NCBI GenBank assembly: GCA_965231125.1
Contig: OZ246414.1
Location: 209,739 to 273,738, forward strand
Direction of reading: 5' to 3'
Length of the DNA stretch: 64,000 nucleotides
From: an uncultured Gammaproteobacteria bacterium
GTDB taxonomy: Bacteria > Patescibacteriota > Microgenomatia > Woykebacterales > RBG-16-39-9b
Part shown: piece after piece, positions 38,696 through 48,572 of the stretch
How the letters are laid out: each line of letters begins with the position of its first letter
How positions within the stretch are numbered: position 1 is the first letter of the stretch
The notes under the pieces: model-generated
The model's database searches: none
Told to the model about the DNA's origin: nothing
The model's input: the letters and a program-made list of their open reading frames with translations, nothing else
Translations under genes and position numbers: made by a program

Positions 38696-38828
38696 ATTTA
38701 CATTATATCAAAGTAACAAATCTGCTTTTAAACCCTGTAGTTGATTAACGTTTACTAAAGGATTAATATGTAAACAATCGAAAAGACTTTTTAGTAAGTT
38801 CGATCAATCAAAAGTGAAGGAGAAGGTC

Positions 38829-40049
38829 ATGGATAGAGTCGTTGTGACTGGTAGAGGGGCAGTCTGCCCTTTGGCAAACAACTGGCCTGATAGTTGGGCG
38901 GCAATGCTGCAAGGGCGCTCTGGTATTGGCCCACTCACAAAGTTTGACGCGCCTTGGTTCGAAGCCGGAATTGTTGGTGAAGTGCGTAATTTCCATCCGG
39001 AGGAAGTTATCCCTGGAAAAGTTTTAAAGAGAGCGGCGATTCCTAGTCATTACGCACTTGTTGCTACTCACGAAGCAGTTGCCGAGTCGGGGCTGGTAAT
39101 TAACGAGTCGAACACAGAAGATGTGGGAGTGATCTTTGGCTCGGCGGGTGGAGGGTACGAACGTATTTTGAAGCAGGAGCATGTCCTTTTTGAAGAAAGT
39201 GCTCGACGCGTTAGCTCATTTACAATCGCCCACATGTTACCAGATGCTTCTTCCGGGCACATCGCCATTGCGCTTGGGGCAAAAGGACCAAACTACTGCC
39301 CGACCGCTGCCTGCGCTACCGGAACAGTCGCAGTTGGCGAAGCCATGGAGACAATCCGTCGCGGCGATGCCAAAGCCATAATTTGCGGTGGTACAGACGA
39401 GCCGATTCTGCCGGTACTGCTTGCCGGATTTCAAGCTTTAAAAGGCATGGCGACGGAAGCTTGCAGGCCTTTCGATCTACGTCGTGACGGTTTTGTTGTC
39501 GGCGAAGGGGCGGCAGCACTAGTGCTAGAAAGCCTGGACTTTGCGAGAGCCCGCGGTGCCCGCGTCTACGCGGAAGTTGTTGGCTATGGTTCAGCGGCTG
39601 ATGCCTTCCATATGGAAAAGCCGGATGAGTGGGGAGATGGGATCGGTCGGGCTATGGTAATGGCCTTACGAAAAGCAGATATTTCACCTGAAGAAGCCGA
39701 CTACATAAATGCGCATGGGACTGGTACGCCGTTGAACGACAAGGTGGAGACATTAGCCATAAGGAGCGTCTTCGGCTCGCATGCGTACGAACTTGCTGTC
39801 AGCTCAACGAAGTCGATGGTCGGTCATCTCATGGGTGGTGCTGGCGCTCTTGAGGCGTTGGCAACAGTTAGCGCAATTAACGACGAAATGATCCCGCCGA
39901 CCATCAACTACGAAACGCCGGATCCGGAGTGTGATTTGGATTATGTACCAAATACCGCCCGCCGAAGAAAGATAGATGTAGCGTTGTCCAACTCGCTTGG
40001 TCTTGGTGGGCACAACGCTTGCGTAGTCTTTAGGAAATTTGAGGGTTAG
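38829..40049 (+). CDS. fabF: beta-ketoacyl-ACP synthase II-like condensing enzyme
   Basis: Cys-His-His triad contexts (AACATG, AHGTGT, GHLMGGAG). AAGGAG RBS 8 nt before ATG 38829. GC about 50-52% versus about 40% in the flanks. Confidence 0.88.
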   Translation: MDRVVVTGRGAVCPLANNWPDSWAAMLQGRSGIGPLTKFDAPWFEAGIVGEVRNFHPEEVIPGKVLKRAAIPSHYALVATHEAVAESGLVINESNTEDVGVIFGSAGGGYERILKQEHVLFEESARRVSSFTIAHMLPDASSGHIAIALGAKGPNYCPTAACATGTVAVGEAMETIRRGDAKAIICGGTDEPILPVLLAGFQALKGMATEACRPFDLRRDGFVVGEGAAALVLESLDFARARGARVYAEVVGYGSAADAFHMEKPDEWGDGIGRAMVMALRKADISPEEADYINAHGTGTPLNDKVETLAIRSVFGSHAYELAVSSTKSMVGHLMGGAGALEALATVSAINDEMIPPTINYETPDPECDLDYVPNTARRRKIDVALSNSLGLGGHNACVVFRKFEG

Positions 40050-44912: not shown

Positions 44913-45263
44913 TTGTATCTTAATCTTAACAAAATTATGATAGATTATAAGTTTTTACCGAAAGATTTAAAGCAATACCTCGGGCCCAATTACAATTGGA
45001 TAATTGCTTCCGGAGAAAGTAAGTTAACTGCTAAAAATCAGACCAACGATTTACGTTCGATTCTTAATTCAATTGGGAGATTTAACTACGCAGATTTTAG
45101 AAGGTTCATTCAAATAAAACGGGAATTAGGTGAATCTAATCTATATTTAAACTCCCGTATTTTGGGAGCGAGGCAATTTGCGCAGTTTTTGAAACAACAA
45201 GAATTTGCTGTTGACGCGCAGCTTTTAACCTACCCTATCTTCAAGCCTGAGTTAGTTCATTAG
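44913..45263 (+). pseudogene. 5' fragment of a tyrosine recombinase/integrase (N-terminal SAM-like core-binding domain only)
   Basis: About 116 aa matching the integrase N-terminal helix pattern (LTAKNQTNDLRSILNSIG...FRRFIQ...LGARQFAQFL). The catalytic R-K-H-R-H-Y domain is absent, and the ORF stops 12 nt before repeat A. Confidence 0.55.
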
Positions 45264-45275
45264 GTATTTGAATTT

Positions 45276-45357
45276 CTGGTTGGCCTTATTGGACCGCACT
45301 TCGTTGAAACTTCGCGCGGCTGGCGATTTGGAGGAACCTCTGGCCTCAATTAAGTTC
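45276..45357 (+). repeat. island repeat family, long form (A, ~82 nt)
   Basis: About 80% identical to B over its length (GGCCTTATTGGACCGCACTTCG...GGCGATTTGGAGGAACCTCTGGCCTCAATTAAGTTC). Confidence 0.7.
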
Positions 45358-45391
45358 TTTTGATTTTTCTCCTATACACCTAAACCATTTC

Positions 45392-45847
45392 TTAGGTTGC
45401 TAGCTCTTTACTAAATTTTGTGAAAATTCTTCTAATTTCCCTTTCAAGCCTCTCCTGTGTTATTCCGTTTCGATTGGCTTCTACAACAATAATAGCTAAT
45501 TCGTAAAGAGATTCTCTAGGAATTGTGAAATCAACCCCATGAGCTAATAAAAATACATGTGTAGAAAGAACGGCTGTTCTTTTGTTACCTTCAAATAAAG
45601 GGTGTTCGCAAGCTATCTTAATAAAATAGGCAACTGCGGCGTTTAAAACTGTGGGTTTTACATACTTATTAACAATAGATAGTTGAACTGAGCCAAGAAT
45701 GCTTTCTAGTTTCCCGGGGGTTCTACGGTCGAAAGGTTCAGTTGGGTCGCCAAGACTAATCTGCAAGTTCTCGTAGGCGGTCTTGTAAATCTCTACTGTT
45801 AGATAATTCTTTGGGGGTAGAGTCAGATTCTTTATCATATTTTTCAA
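45392..45847 (-). CDS. doc: Doc (death-on-curing) Fic-family toxin
   Basis: Fic/Doc motif HPLFEGNKRTA and N-terminal GDPTEPFD..PGKLESILGSVQ. Confidence 0.8.
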   Translation of the reverse strand: MKNMIKNLTLPPKNYLTVEIYKTAYENLQISLGDPTEPFDRRTPGKLESILGSVQLSIVNKYVKPTVLNAAVAYFIKIACEHPLFEGNKRTAVLSTHVFLLAHGVDFTIPRESLYELAIIVVEANRNGITQERLEREIRRIFTKFSKELAT

Positions 45848-45926
45848 GCAGCTCGTAAGTTTTGCGGTATTTTTTTATGCTGTGATTAATATTTTTTTGG
45901 ATTATCTTTTTCTCGGAAGTTGTCAT
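45756..45926 (-). CDS. candidate antitoxin partner of Doc (56-aa unlisted ORF)
   Basis: ATG 45926 to TAG 45756, MTTSEKKIIQKNINHSIKKYRKTYELLEKYDKE... It lies immediately upstream of doc and overlaps it out of frame by about 90 nt. No family assignment. Confidence 0.3.
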   Translation of the reverse strand: MTTSEKKIIQKNINHSIKKYRKTYELLEKYDKESDSTPKELSNSRDLQDRLRELAD

Positions 45927-46090
45927 ATGTAGCAGTATACTACAATTCTACAAATAAAGTGAAAATCAAGCAACACTTGACAGGTTTATGCTTTATCACC
46001 AAAGTGCTAGAATAACACCTTGCAGGTGATGTTTTTTGACAAAATAACACTCTAGCGAGTGATGTTTTCTCATCAATTAATGATTCGAAA

Positions 46091-46321
46091 ATGGCAGCTA
46101 TGAAAATTAAAAATTTATTATTGAAAATTATTCTTTCGCTTCTCGGTTTAATTATTCTTACCATTGTTGGCAGCCTTCTTTATTTGAGATTAAGCTGTAA
46201 GGCTATTCAAATTATCAAGACTCATAAGGGCAATACACAATATTCAATAATAAGCCAGCGGGGAGATTCTCACGAACCAGCAAGTTGTAGTGGATTTCCG
46301 GTGGTAGTTGGAATGGAATAG
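46091..46321 (+). CDS. possible small membrane protein
   Basis: 76 aa with one hydrophobic helix; weak support. Confidence 0.25.
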   Translation: MAAMKIKNLLLKIILSLLGLIILTIVGSLLYLRLSCKAIQIIKTHKGNTQYSIISQRGDSHEPASCSGFPVVVGME

Positions 46322-46356
46322 TATTTTTAGAAAAAGAGACTCAGGCACGAATTTCA

Positions 46357-46381
46357 TTGGTCGGCCTTGTTAGGCTCAGAC
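46357..46381 (+). repeat. island repeat family, short form (C)
   Basis: TTGGTCGGCCTTGTTAGGCTCAGAC. Its first 15 nt are identical to the start of B, and it contains a GTTAGGC core. Confidence 0.65.
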
Positions 46382-46412
46382 AGTTGGCGGGGCCCAGTGG
46401 CGAGCTCAGTCC

Positions 46413-46778
46413 TCAGCTCACCGCTTTCTTCACGAGCGCGCCGATCTTTGCCTCTTCGGCGGCAGTCAACCCCTTCAGCGCGAAGGCGATTGGCCACATG
46501 TGGCCTTCGTCGAGGTTCGCCTCGTCGTTGAAACCGAGCGTCATGTACCTCTCCTTGAACTTCTCCCCGCCGCGGAAGAAGCAGATAACCTTGCCGTCCT
46601 TGGCATACGCGGGCATCCCGTACCAGACCCTCGGCGAGAGGGTTGGCGCGCTCTCTTTGATGATAGCATGGAGCCGCTCGCCCATGGCGCGATACGGTCC
46701 CGGCATCGCGTCGATCGCCGCGAGCACCGCGGCCTCGCCGTCGGCCTTCTTCGTCGCCTTCTTGTCGACTACTTGCAT
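46413..46778 (-). CDS. DUF1801/YdhG-like protein, strongly GC-rich (probable horizontal acquisition)
   Basis: About 60% GC against a ~40% background. DUF1801-like pattern ([25 protein letters not shown]...[17 protein letters not shown]). Confidence 0.7.
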
Positions 46779-46929
46779 ATAGGGTTCCTTTCTACTGCGA
46801 TTAATATTTTTGTAAAACCACGTTAATTGGTATTAAAGTTATTGTCAATGGTTTTAGTATGAGTTCCAAAAACGTTACTATCCCCACAGAAAAAGAAGTT
46901 TCTGTCGAAAATATTTAGCTTCAAAAACC

Positions 46930-47015
46930 TTGGTCGGCCTTGTTGGACTACACTTCGCTAAAGCTCGCGTAGCAGGCGATTTCGAGGAACCTCTGTCCGC
47001 AATTGAGCTCGTTAG
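46930..47015 (+). repeat. island repeat family, long form (B, ~86 nt)
   Basis: TTGGTCGGCCTTGTTGGACTACACTTCGCTAAAGCTCGCGTAGCAGGCGATTTCGAGGAACCTCTGTCCGCAATTGAGCTCGTTAG. Confidence 0.7.
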
Positions 47016-47027
47016 TTAAAACACAGC

Positions 47028-47720
47028 TTATTCAGATTTACCGCCCGTTGTTAAAAGCCGGTCGTGATTATATCGGAGTAACATTATCCCAATAAGTAGA
47101 GCAAAGCCAAATAAATACCCGCTAATTACATCGGATAACCAGTGTAGGTGTAGATAGATACGAGACGGGCCAACTAACAACACGACAGTTAACTCGACTA
47201 ATAGAAGCATTAAACGAAGTTTTTTATTTTTGATGTACAACAAGGTAAGAATTGCTAAATAGCCAAAGAAAACAACGTATGAAGCAGTATGGCCCGAAGG
47301 ATAACAAGTCTCGTGCCAAAAAGTTTTTTGAAGAAAGGAAAGATTGAACACCTCGTGAAAGGAAACAATTTTGCTAAAGGGAGAAGCTGGGCATTCTACT
47401 CGAAAGATGAGTTTTACCACGAATTCAGTTAAAAACCAGCCGGAAAAGCTCAATGGAAGCATTTTTGCTTCAAAATTATTCTTCTTGCGACGGAAATAAA
47501 CAAACAGCCATATTAAAACACCTACAATTGGCACATAGAGAAAAGCCAGAAACCTAGAAACATAATAAAGGAGATTGTTCAGTGAGAAAGGTAGGTTTTG
47601 GTTAAGATAAACGTCAATCGGTGTTAGTTGCCCACTCATTACTATAAAAGTGAATACGACAAAGGCCACAAGAAGCAGGCAAAAAATAATTGAATAGGTG
47701 CTGTACTTTAGAGAAAGCAT
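47028..47720 (-). CDS. PAP2-family membrane phosphatase
   Basis: PSGH and SRxxxxxHxxxD motifs (YPSGHTA; SRIYLHLHWLSD); 6 TM. Confidence 0.75.
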   Translation of the reverse strand: MLSLKYSTYSIIFCLLLVAFVVFTFIVMSGQLTPIDVYLNQNLPFSLNNLLYYVSRFLAFLYVPIVGVLIWLFVYFRRKKNNFEAKMLPLSFSGWFLTEFVVKLIFRVECPASPFSKIVSFHEVFNLSFLQKTFWHETCYPSGHTASYVVFFGYLAILTLLYIKNKKLRLMLLLVELTVVLLVGPSRIYLHLHWLSDVISGYLFGFALLIGIMLLRYNHDRLLTTGGKSE

Positions 47721-47810
47721 TTGATGCTATTTTGGATTTTACACCAAAAATGCTAGAATAACACCCAACGCTACTAAAGTTATGCTGGGCGATCCCACAT
47801 TTCACCAAGG

Positions 47811-48236
47811 CTATTTATGATGCTTTTGAAGAAATTTTTTTGGGGTTGCTATCTGAATTTTTGGAATTATCCTTTGCGATTCTTCAGTTAGAATGTGTTT
47901 TCTATCCAGACTAACTAAAAAATCTGACTTGGATTCTTGGGCTGAAATAAGAATGTGCCGATCTTTTTGATCTATGTCTTTTAATTTCTCAAGCTTTTCT
48001 TCCTCCGGAAAAGGTAAAATTTTGAAGTAATCTTCTTCCAGCCAGTTTAGAAACAGTTGATATTTTTCTTGATTTAATTTCCTTCTGATAGCTTCTTCGG
48101 ACTCTGCCACCACACCTTCATTTATCCAACCGTCAAGTTTCCCTTTCTCTATCAGATTAATTATTTCAAAAGAGCCGCCGGTTTGTGAACCAGCGGCAGC
48201 AACAATTACAGAGGAGTCTAGGAAAACCTTTATCAT
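47811..48236 (-). CDS. PIN-domain toxin (VapC-like)
   Basis: N-terminal VFLDSSVIVAA and acidic residues consistent with a PIN fold. ATGA overlap with the upstream antitoxin. Confidence 0.65.
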   Translation of the reverse strand: MIKVFLDSSVIVAAAGSQTGGSFEIINLIEKGKLDGWINEGVVAESEEAIRRKLNQEKYQLFLNWLEEDYFKILPFPEEEKLEKLKDIDQKDRHILISAQESKSDFLVSLDRKHILTEESQRIIPKIQIATPKKFLQKHHK

Positions 48237-48454
48237 TCTAACTTATCTTCTTCAAGAAAACTCTCTATCTCTTTATCAGTGTATTTCCGCAAATATTTGG
48301 TTGGAATACTTTTCAGCGGCTTAATTATGAGTTCGCCTTCTTTAATACTTACATCAAGGAGAGTATTTTCATCTATCTCTAGTTGTTTGCGAAAGGTCGC
48401 AGGAATAGTAATTTGGCCCTTTGGTAATGGTTTTACAACTTCGGAAGTCTTCAT
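48233..48454 (-). CDS. AbrB/MazE-type antitoxin (VapB-like)
   Basis: SpoVT/AbrB swapped-hairpin pattern KGQITIPATFRKQLEI. Confidence 0.65.
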   Translation of the reverse strand: MKTSEVVKPLPKGQITIPATFRKQLEIDENTLLDVSIKEGELIIKPLKSIPTKYLRKYTDKEIESFLEEDKLE

Positions 48455-48498
48455 ATAGTTAGAATTTTAGAATTTCTAACTTTCTTTGTCAAGTATGT

Positions 48499-48572
48499 TG
48501 GTCGGGGAGGAGGGAATCGGACCCACGATACCGCACCCCCAGCGCGGTGTATTACCACTATACTACTCCCCG
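48499..48572 (-). tRNA. tRNA-Pro (anticodon GGG), CCA encoded
   Basis: 7-bp acceptor stem CGGGGAG/CTCCCCG, D-arm GTAT-AGTGGTA-ATAC, anticodon loop CTGGGGG, discriminator A plus CCA. One T-T mismatch in the T-stem and C55 in place of U. Confidence 0.75.

Follow-up and report, generated by a model that had tools for sequence, protein, structure and literature searches.

Tandem integrative units at the 3′ ends of small RNA genes have been described in several forms. In the tandem ssrA islands of Dehalococcoides, about 85 nucleotides (nt) are conserved around each repeat, a motif that does not match the RNA gene stands upstream of the repeat, and some units carry no integrase (PMC3146451). Accretion of cis-mobilizable elements (CIMEs) and integrative mobilizable elements (IMEs) and ICESt1-type tandems at transfer RNA (tRNA) and transfer-messenger RNA (tmRNA) genes follow a related pattern (PMC5704250). 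Here we describe a tRNA-Pro(GGG) locus in a stretch of 64,000 nt (contig OZ246414.1, positions 209,739 to 273,738, assembly GCA_965231125.1; hereafter the window) of an ultra-small-genome bacterium. The locus holds a gene of the DUF1801 family, rich in guanine plus cytosine (GC), between two copies of a perfect 15-bp direct repeat (the 15-mers), which a first-pass annotation had taken for a discrete, recently inserted cassette. We find that the DUF1801 gene belongs to one of several small units that follow the tRNA gene in tandem and end in a conserved terminal element of about 100 nt, and we propose that integrase-less units of this kind were probably inserted one after another, site-specifically, at the tRNA 3′ end. 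We hold with high confidence the descriptive parts of this reading, namely, the element family, an insertion or deletion (indel) at the tRNA end, a deletion that truncated one element to a remnant (C), and a foreign, horizontally spread module.

Decayed integrative units that follow a tRNA gene in tandem are a known kind of system; this example comes from a lineage in which such loci are rarely resolved. In common with the tRNA and tmRNA islands, insertions at its 3′ end leave the small RNA gene intact, and several units follow one another, with a short direct repeat of the RNA gene end at the distal boundary of each. Some units lack integration genes, and the cargo comprises toxin-antitoxin pairs and compositionally foreign genes, again as in the known islands. 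As in the ssrA islands, conservation extends over about 85 nt around each repeat and takes in an upstream motif without a match in the RNA gene. Unlike in the known islands, the units are tiny (0.57 to 1.6 kb, 1 to 3 genes), the tRNA repeat is 7 to 8 nt long, no complete integrase is seen but only a domain-sized recombinase remnant at the array's distal end, the mobility is putative, and the units reside in an ultra-small-genome bacterium.

The two 15-mers and the tRNA-end indel

From the tRNA gene to the sequence past the left 15-mer, the locus is laid out as follows (ORF, open reading frame; UTR, untranslated region; GC3, GC at third codon positions):

48499 to 48572, minus strand: intact tRNA-Pro(GGG) gene, the anchor of the putative hotspot (ARAGORN; Rfam tRNA model, 55.5 bits), with 3′ end ...CTCCCCGACCA
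48498 to 48505, minus strand: CCGACCAA at the tRNA 3′ end, an attL-like junction (junction table); the start of unit 1, CATACTTGACAAAG... (VapB promoter), lies downstream
46930 to 48497, minus strand: unit 1, 1568 bp, consisting of VapB, VapC, PAP2, and element B, with native-like GC3 of 0.30 to 0.38 (Pfam; alignments to relatives)
46928 to 47032, minus strand: element B, a full-length terminal element of ~100 nt (repeat families D2 and D13; alignment; covariance model, 109.6 bits)
46779 to 46929, minus strand: AT-rich leader of the DUF1801 unit, GC 0.31, starting GGTTTTTGAAGC, with a TTGACA box and a ribosome-binding site
46413 to 46778, minus strand: DUF1801 (YdhG-like) gene, 121 amino acids (aa) (ORF list; Pfam DUF1801)
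46376 to 46412, minus strand: GC-rich 3′ UTR, 37 nt (flank comparison, blastn, alignment)
46357 to 46375, minus strand: element remnant C (GCCTAACAAGGCCGACCAA), 19 nt, including the left 15-mer at 46357 to 46371 (alignment to contigs L012 and L013)
46339 to 46356, minus strand: flank past remnant C (TGAAATTCGTGCCTGAGT, beginning TGAAATTCGTGCC) (blastn, 33 nt at 88%; junction table)

The 15-mer TTGGTCGGCCTTGTT is exact at 46357-46371 and 46930-46944, with no further copy in the window at up to 2 mismatches, which bears out the perfect direct repeat of the first-pass annotation; a two-copy outcome was obtained in 0 of 100 shuffles. The window contains 11 exact direct repeats of 15 nt or longer, compared with 2.3 in block shuffles, and 4 loci with such a pair less than 1 kb apart, compared with 0.09 expected. 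Given four close-pair loci in the window, the 15-nt repeat alone is only moderately unusual and informative. The contrast in composition that had been reported for the gene is also correct: its GC content is 0.626 and its GC3 0.852, versus 0.35 to 0.42 and 0.30 to 0.45 in the neighboring genes and a GC content of 0.423 over the whole window. One correction is that the segment between the repeats (558 nt) is composite and not GC-rich throughout: the 151 nt of leader at 46779-46929 are AT-rich, and the GC-rich stretch with a DNA-level match to the high-GC contigs L002 to L004 is 46376-46807.

Four contigs were informative about the boundaries: L010, from an independent Logan assembly, and L005, L012, and L013. 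L010 is identical to the window from PAP2 through element B and the leader into DUF1801, of which it covers the first half, its 5′ junction included, and the module (leader, gene, trailer, and element) recurs with its flanks in L005, L012, L013, and L010. L005, from a diverged lineage, keeps the recA–RDD–membrane protein–tRNA-Pro synteny, with identities to the window of 75% (DNA) and 84% (protein) for recA, 53% (protein) for RDD, and 29% (protein) for the neighboring membrane protein; L012 is 98% identical to L005, and in L013 another gene stands upstream of the tRNA. Unit 1 is absent from L005, L012, and L013. In these three contigs the tRNA 3′ end ...CCCCGACCA is followed directly by the leader AGGTTTTTGAAGC..., which matches that of the window at 144 of 151 positions in L005 and L012 and at 132 of 151 in L013. 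In the window, the leader comes after ...AAGGCCGACCA of element B, and the tRNA end (...CCCCGACCAA) precedes the VapB promoter instead. Because the leader is joined to the tRNA in the relatives and to element B here, the breakpoints of the 1568-bp indel (48497-46930) lie inside the repeated CCGACCAA. The presence/absence junctions fall within CCGACCAA(GG), and the polymorphism concerns unit 1.

The left 15-mer is explained by the other side of the module. In L012 and L013, DUF1801 is followed by an AT-rich trailer of ~95 nt and then by a full-length copy of the element ending GGTCCAACAAGCCCGACCAG, and remnant C corresponds to the last 19 nt of that element. The 18 nt past the element (AATTCGTGCCTGAGT...) are homologous to the window sequence just past C, and where L012 has 158 nt of trailer and element, the window has 4 nt (a net loss of ~154 nt). 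This homologous flank indicates that the window carries a deletion, which left GCCTAACAAGGCCGACCAA, the left 15-mer. The two 15-mers are, as these alignments read, the tails of two paralogous ~100-nt elements of adjacent units and not a duplication from the arrival of DUF1801: the right 15-mer is the tail of the VapBC-PAP2 unit and the left one belongs to the stump of the DUF1801 unit's own element.

The proposal of a discrete, recent insertion thus stands in one part and falls in another, as the unit is discrete and horizontally exchanged but the 15-mers were not made by inserting this cassette. Likewise, the repeat is att-like, because its end equals the last 8 bases at the tRNA-Pro 3′ end, but we see neither a target-site duplication (TSD) nor an attL/attR pair from this cassette. 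The same annotation had held that GC-rich homologues at the same locus without flanking repeats would speak against its model, and half of this picture was found: related small-genome lineages hold the same GC-rich gene at the same locus, where its left boundary is the tRNA and not a 15-mer. Its presence there indicates that this genome is not alone in carrying the insertion. Leader and gene together show 91% DNA identity between the window and L005, compared with 75% for recA. That the module is conserved far better than recA points to recent horizontal exchange between small-genome lineages, and the insertion is still young relative to the divergence of the genomes.

Terminal elements and proposed serial insertion at tRNA-Pro

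Two features at the far end of the array enter the argument:

45274 to 45379, minus strand: element A, full-length, the end of unit 3 (...GTCCAATAAGGCCAACCAG) (alignment; covariance model, 123.5 bits)
44913 to 45263, plus strand: 116-aa ORF, a homologue of a recombinase N-terminal region (representative search match P0257)

Elements A and B are ~80% identical over 85 to 100 nt. Element B ends in ...GTCCAACAAGGCCGACCAA, with the right-hand 15-mer (46930-46944) as its final 15 nt. The tail of the element reads AACAAGG-CCGACCAA, and its final 7 to 8 bases are the same as the end of the tRNA gene: CCGACCA(A) terminates the tRNA, B, C, and the L012/L013 element, and A has CCAACCA. Beyond this terminal match of 7 to 8 nt, no further similarity between element and tRNA was found. 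A covariance model built from the element copies matches only A and B in the 64-kb window, which indicates that the element is confined to this locus within the window and is not a dispersed repeat. A small hairpin in the element draws support from three distinct copies, with 2 covarying pairs in helix 2 and 97.9% of cells paired, and 8 of 500 shuffles reach its score. Folded alone, the element is less stable than shuffled controls (z +0.6 to +2.0), and it has no U-tract.

The terminal element is previously undescribed. Rfam returned no match for element, leader, or trailer at E values up to 5 over 45100-47200, only the tRNA scoring, and it returned chance-level hits only over the L012 module; the fold of the trailer is not significant (z -0.8 to +0.6). 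The element core had 0 hits in the metagenome scan, three element/trailer pieces gave chance matches or none against viral contigs, and no match was found in the phage collection. Two other identities for the element were considered and rejected. As a decayed 3′ half of tRNA-Pro, it aligns only in the terminal CC(C)GACCA, and 42 to 165 of 500 shuffles score equally; neither ARAGORN nor Rfam detected a pseudo-tRNA in it. A protein-coding remnant was rejected because the copies differ by indels of 1 nt and 5 nt, which break the reading frame.

The 116-aa ORF (44913..45263) converges on element A, with its stop codon 13 nt from the end of A. In an exhaustive representative search it matched P0257 (348 aa) at residues 8 to 95 with 33% identity. 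P0257 carries the Pfam domain Phage_integrase at residues 133 to 290, and P0256, a closer homologue, has a weak Phage_int_SAM_1 match. As the match lies upstream of the catalytic domain of P0257, the 116-aa ORF is a homologue of a tyrosine-recombinase N-terminal region without the catalytic domain. Direct family searches of the ORF (Pfam, NCBIfam, and PHROG) gave no match.

We propose that the locus is a hotspot downstream of tRNA-Pro(GGG) in which the VapBC-PAP2, DUF1801, and Phd/Doc units, none with its own integrase, would have been added in tandem. A circular unit would bear the junction ...AACAAGG-CCGACCAA-unit start, which would recombine with the tRNA 3′ end (...CTCC-CCGACCAA); the attP candidates contain AACAAGGCCGACCAA, and the tRNA-Pro 3′ end would be their partner site. 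The enzyme would be a tyrosine recombinase, either left only as the N-terminal-homologous ORF or supplied in trans. The tRNA would be regenerated at each event, so that the newest unit would adjoin the tRNA and its element tail would be fused to the former downstream sequence. An internal deletion of ~154 nt would then have reduced the element of the DUF1801 unit to the stump C. Such accretion accounts for the exact breakpoints and the common orientation of the units, for the conserved ~100 nt at their distal ends, including AACAAGG, a motif not found in the tRNA, and for the position of the recombinase remnant at the old, tRNA-distal end. We assign this reading a probability of roughly 0.6. 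The sequences show the layout of the locus, its foreign composition and horizontal spread, the element family, and the presence/absence polymorphism at the tRNA end; from these we infer how a recombinase would have acted, in what order the events took place, and which way the module was transferred.

Several observations weigh against serial insertion. The indel is equally explicable as a deletion in the relatives, and the terminal match between element and tRNA comprises only 7 to 8 nt and is not significant as a bare local alignment. Neither a complete integrase nor a Phage_integrase catalytic domain was found among the scanned ORFs of the 64-kb window, and stand-alone homologues of the same length as the 116-aa ORF exist in other genomes. 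On inspection of the sequences, the tRNA-proximal ends of the three units have no mutual similarity; some would be expected if one recombinase with arm sites had acted on them. Finally, the best homologue of PAP2 elsewhere has 48% identity and the nearest named one, from Candidatus Daviesbacteria, 45%, the latter in a different context and with no element. As there are no near-identical PAP2 copies, there is no independent sign of current mobility of unit 1.

Stand-alone proteins of 103 to 106 aa (P0255, P0256, and P0258) share the recombinase N-terminal region and end at the motif LL.YP.F; in P0258, the last 37 residues are joined to an N-terminal fragment of DUF1016. Such proteins may have arisen by repeated truncation at one breakpoint, or they may represent a functional small protein.

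The gene content of units 1 and 3 is as follows:

48492 to 48464: promoter-like site TTGACA-17-TAAAAT, upstream of VapB
48233 to 48454, minus strand: VapB, part of unit 1
47811 to 48236, minus strand: VapC PIN toxin, part of unit 1
47028 to 47720, minus strand: PAP2 phosphatase, part of unit 1
45380 to 46338, minus strand: unit 3 cargo (Pfam Fic/DOC; ORF list)
46091 to 46321, plus strand: 76-aa membrane-like ORF (ORF list)
45756 to 45926, minus strand: 56-aa ORF upstream of and overlapping doc, an antitoxin by position only, with no family match
45392 to 45847, minus strand: Doc/Fic toxin (Pfam Fic/DOC)

On the minus strand the order is therefore tRNA-Pro, VapB-VapC-PAP2, B, leader, DUF1801 with its 3′ UTR, C, the 76-aa ORF, the Doc unit, A, and the 116-aa ORF; the unit genes are oriented with the tRNA, with the one exception of the 76-aa ORF. 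A 28-nt box occurs at 45992-46019, upstream of the 56-aa ORF that precedes doc, and at 47738-47765, upstream of PAP2, with 82% identity between the copies (15 nt exact: TGCTAGAATAACACC), and it looks like a promoter or operator box common to units 1 and 3. At 46016-46080 there are two tandem 29-nt repeats, each with a short palindrome (CACCTTGCAGGTG; CACTCTAGCGAGTG) followed by ATGTTTT. These repeats separate the Phd/Doc operon from the 76-aa ORF, which diverges from it, and may be operator sites. Elsewhere in the window, a FabF-like beta-ketoacyl synthase gene (38814-40049) is a second compositional outlier, with a GC content of 0.53 and a GC3 of 0.50 compared with a GC content of 0.30 to 0.36 on either side; it lies between ribosomal protein genes and a Fur/ZnuABC cluster.

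Competing explanations

The alternative that survives best, possible although on balance unlikely, is homologous recombination of DNA that the cells have taken up, without a recombinase dedicated to the units. The element would then be a conserved 3′ intergenic signal (terminator-like or an RNA-stabilising hairpin), element and tRNA would serve as homology arms by which gene units are swapped between strains, and the 15-mers would be the best-conserved part of paralogous intergenic sequences. One indication comes from L012:520-753 and L013:40-273, which are identical at 234 of 234 positions from the element to the start of guaA, yet the two contigs differ by 11% in the leader and by 21% in the DUF1801 coding sequence (CDS); the L013 allele is a mosaic that has another N-terminus within the same frame. 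Allelic replacement by homologous recombination would produce this pattern, and such replacement evidently takes place here too. The compensatory changes in the element hairpin and the failure to find a functional integrase among the scanned ORFs fit the same explanation. It does not, however, predict that the unit 1 breakpoints should coincide precisely with the 8-nt repeat found at the end of tRNA and element alike; the poor folding of the element relative to shuffles, its missing U-tract, and the recombinase N-terminal-homologous ORF at the array end also speak against it.

Homology-facilitated illegitimate recombination after natural transformation is a known process. It would explain the presence of a GC-rich ORF, with ~20 to 30 nt of 5′ and 37 nt of 3′ flank, in an AT-rich frame, as well as the entry of the module into a high-GC contig (L020; see below) with TGG microhomology, but it leaves the precise tRNA-end breakpoints and the conserved terminal element unexplained.

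A single recent insertion of DUF1801 that made both 15-mers, either as a TSD or as attL/attR, is the model of the first-pass annotation and has become improbable, as the related loci contradict it. It has in its favor that the perfect 15-nt repeat brackets the only strongly GC-anomalous gene of the region. The right copy, however, forms the tail of a 100-nt element whose paralogue, A, accompanies unrelated cargo, and the unit to which it belongs is absent in relatives, where the tRNA forms the left boundary of the module; the left copy extends into a full-length element in L012 and L013. A transposon is further disfavored in that no transposase was found in the window and no terminal inverted repeats of the module were seen by inspection.

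Highly improbable is an integron-like cassette array with the ~100-nt elements as attC sites. The units do resemble integron cassettes in that they are small, co-oriented, and mostly single-gene, with a recombination-site-like element at each 3′ end; GTTRRRY-like heptamers (GTTGGAC and GTTAGGC fit this core) occur in B, C, and the L012 element, and the 116-aa homologue of a tyrosine-recombinase N-terminal region is close by. Unlike in integron cassettes, no paired inverse core (RYYYAAC...GTTRRRY) with attC geometry is present: each element has one heptamer, which is at the wrong end with respect to the ORF and which the consensus fold leaves unpaired or places at the edge of a helix, element A has ATTGGAC, and as single-stranded DNA, A, B, and C form no long bulged hairpins and fold no better than shuffles (z +0.6 to +2). 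In addition, the genes point toward the recombinase remnant and carry their own promoters, the anchor is a tRNA instead of attI, and no integrase catalytic domain of the kind that an intI gene, beside its attI site and Pc promoter, would encode occurs in the scanned window ORFs.

Least credible is an assembly chimera, a high-GC fragment spliced into a low-GC contig: L010 does end inside DUF1801 (L010:1 corresponds to window ~46597) and L005 ends (3382) 13 nt past its stop codon, breaks at the gene that are consistent with branching of the assembly graph on 90 to 95% identical copies in community members (or on strain heterogeneity), but L010 has the identical junction between leader and ATG, L005, L012, and L013 conserve it, the trailer, element, and flank recur in L012 and L013, where the flank past the element matches the window, and five contigs are concordant, with the gene also on a 915-kb NCBI contig and the same locus on the JGI contig Ga0136847_10637249.

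Origin and spread of the DUF1801 gene

The Pfam match of the protein to DUF1801 (PF08818) is barely at threshold (27.3 bits versus a cut-off of 27.2, residues 30 to 89). The best 120 homologues listed have 71 to 93% protein identity, and most of them carry PF08818; the few with a source name belong to Methanomicrobiales, Halobacteriota, Dehalococcoidales, Chloroflexales, and Syntrophales. The copies examined (L006, L021, L027, and L030 among them) have a GC content of ~0.57 to 0.64 and a GC3 of ~0.76 to 0.87 regardless of the GC content of the host contig, which ranges from 0.35 to 0.70. Comparison of these sequences suggests a wide and recent spread of the subfamily between phyla, in archaea as well as bacteria. 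In the plasmid collection only the CDS was matched, at 71 to 79% and on megaplasmids of Deinococcus and Streptomyces, with no leader or trailer, and the neighboring protein and the leader had 0 hits in the genome-collection scans.

The high-GC donor named in the first-pass annotation remains a reasonable idea. In L027 and L030 (contig GC ~0.64), the gene sits in GC-matched, native-looking flanks, and this context, together with its constantly high GC content, supports such a donor; the CDS of the window is 94 to 96% identical at the DNA level to copies on contigs with a GC content of 0.60 to 0.63, the closest being L003 (95.6%) and L020 (93.7%), both on contigs with a GC content of 0.61 to 0.62. 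The flanks of the gene show how far the shared sequence extends. The ribosome-binding stretch TAGAAAGGAATCCTAT is kept in L027 and not in L030. The 3′ UTR is common to the high-GC copies L002 to L004 as far as ...CCAACTGTCTGA, and its first ~27 nt (GGACTGAGCTCRCCACTGGGYCCCRCC) are common to the Methanothrix-like L006 copy, on an archaeal-type contig with a GC content of 0.47, and absent from L021, L027, and L030. The DUF1801 ORF with ~20 to 30 nt upstream and 37 nt downstream most probably came from a high-GC lineage.

Copies of the module in high-GC genomes retain AT-rich flanks of different lengths. In L003 and, independently, in L004, 33 nt with a GC content of 0.24 are kept on the upstream side and ~160 nt on the downstream side, where the trailer has a GC content of 0.38 and is joined by the first ~48 nt of the element before native sequence with a GC content of 0.66 resumes. 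L020:394-987 (JGI 3300012931, Ga0153915_10612517) has ~115 nt of diverged leader (GC 0.30) and 114 nt past the stop codon, made up of the 37-nt GC-rich 3′ UTR and 77 nt of trailer with a GC content of 0.33. There the module splits an ADP-ribosylglycohydrolase-like frame (...WLQLLPAG / module / WTAERAAY...) with TGG microhomology only at the junctions, in a contig with a GC content of 0.62 overall and 0.68 to 0.73 in the native flanks. These nested AT-rich remnants suggest that high-GC bacteria received the module from a low-GC source, e.g., a small-genome lineage, a direction of transfer that we infer. The module is 89 to 96% identical between small-genome lineages resembling the candidate phyla radiation (CPR) and two unrelated high-GC genomes. 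For the host of the window, the 915-kb size of the contig and the nearest named PAP2 homologue (Candidatus Daviesbacteria) suggest membership of the CPR/Patescibacteria. It is tempting to view the ~0.7-kb module (leader, gene, trailer, and element) as a self-contained cassette that crosses phylum boundaries, an idea that we regard as doubtful.

In L003:970-1532 and L004:457-1010, the module lies 3′ of a HesB/IscA-type gene, with a GC-rich hairpin in place of the hairpin of the element. The covariance model gave an apparent full-length element in L003, which was rejected, as only the 5′ ~48 nt align convincingly.

DUF1801/YdhG-like proteins belong to the YdhG-like superfamily of SCOP with a frataxin-like fold, and structures have been solved (PDB 2OC6, 2I8D, and 2KL4) (PMC10855754). 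The protein described here resembles this family through a PF08818 match at threshold, and the fold is known from literature on other members. Neither sequence nor profile searches matched it to a PDB entry, and its AlphaFold2 model is of low confidence (mean predicted local distance difference test score, 57). One source labels a DUF1801 homologue "iron chaperone," and in L002 to L004 the gene comes after the HesB/IscA-type gene for Fe-S assembly. A role in metal or Fe-S handling may be weakly surmised.

For the reading of other genomes, this locus offers a caution: a perfect short repeat that flanks a compositionally odd gene need not mark the insertion of that gene. Ultra-small-genome bacteria are thought to depend on and exchange genes with other cells, by routes that are poorly documented. 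The locus provides a base-resolved example that brings together a tRNA-Pro hotspot, a terminal element, an imported high-GC gene, and copies of the module in high-GC genomes. The recognisable terminal element could serve to find more such units, and if element and recombinase remnant form a working system, it would be a compact, tool-like one and a marker for tracing gene flow. The module in two high-GC contigs is a lead worth following. If the cassette does cross phylum boundaries, these copies would be direct sequence evidence of gene flow from ultra-small bacteria into high-GC bacteria, which are possibly their hosts, or alternatively would point to an unrecognised vector common to both groups.

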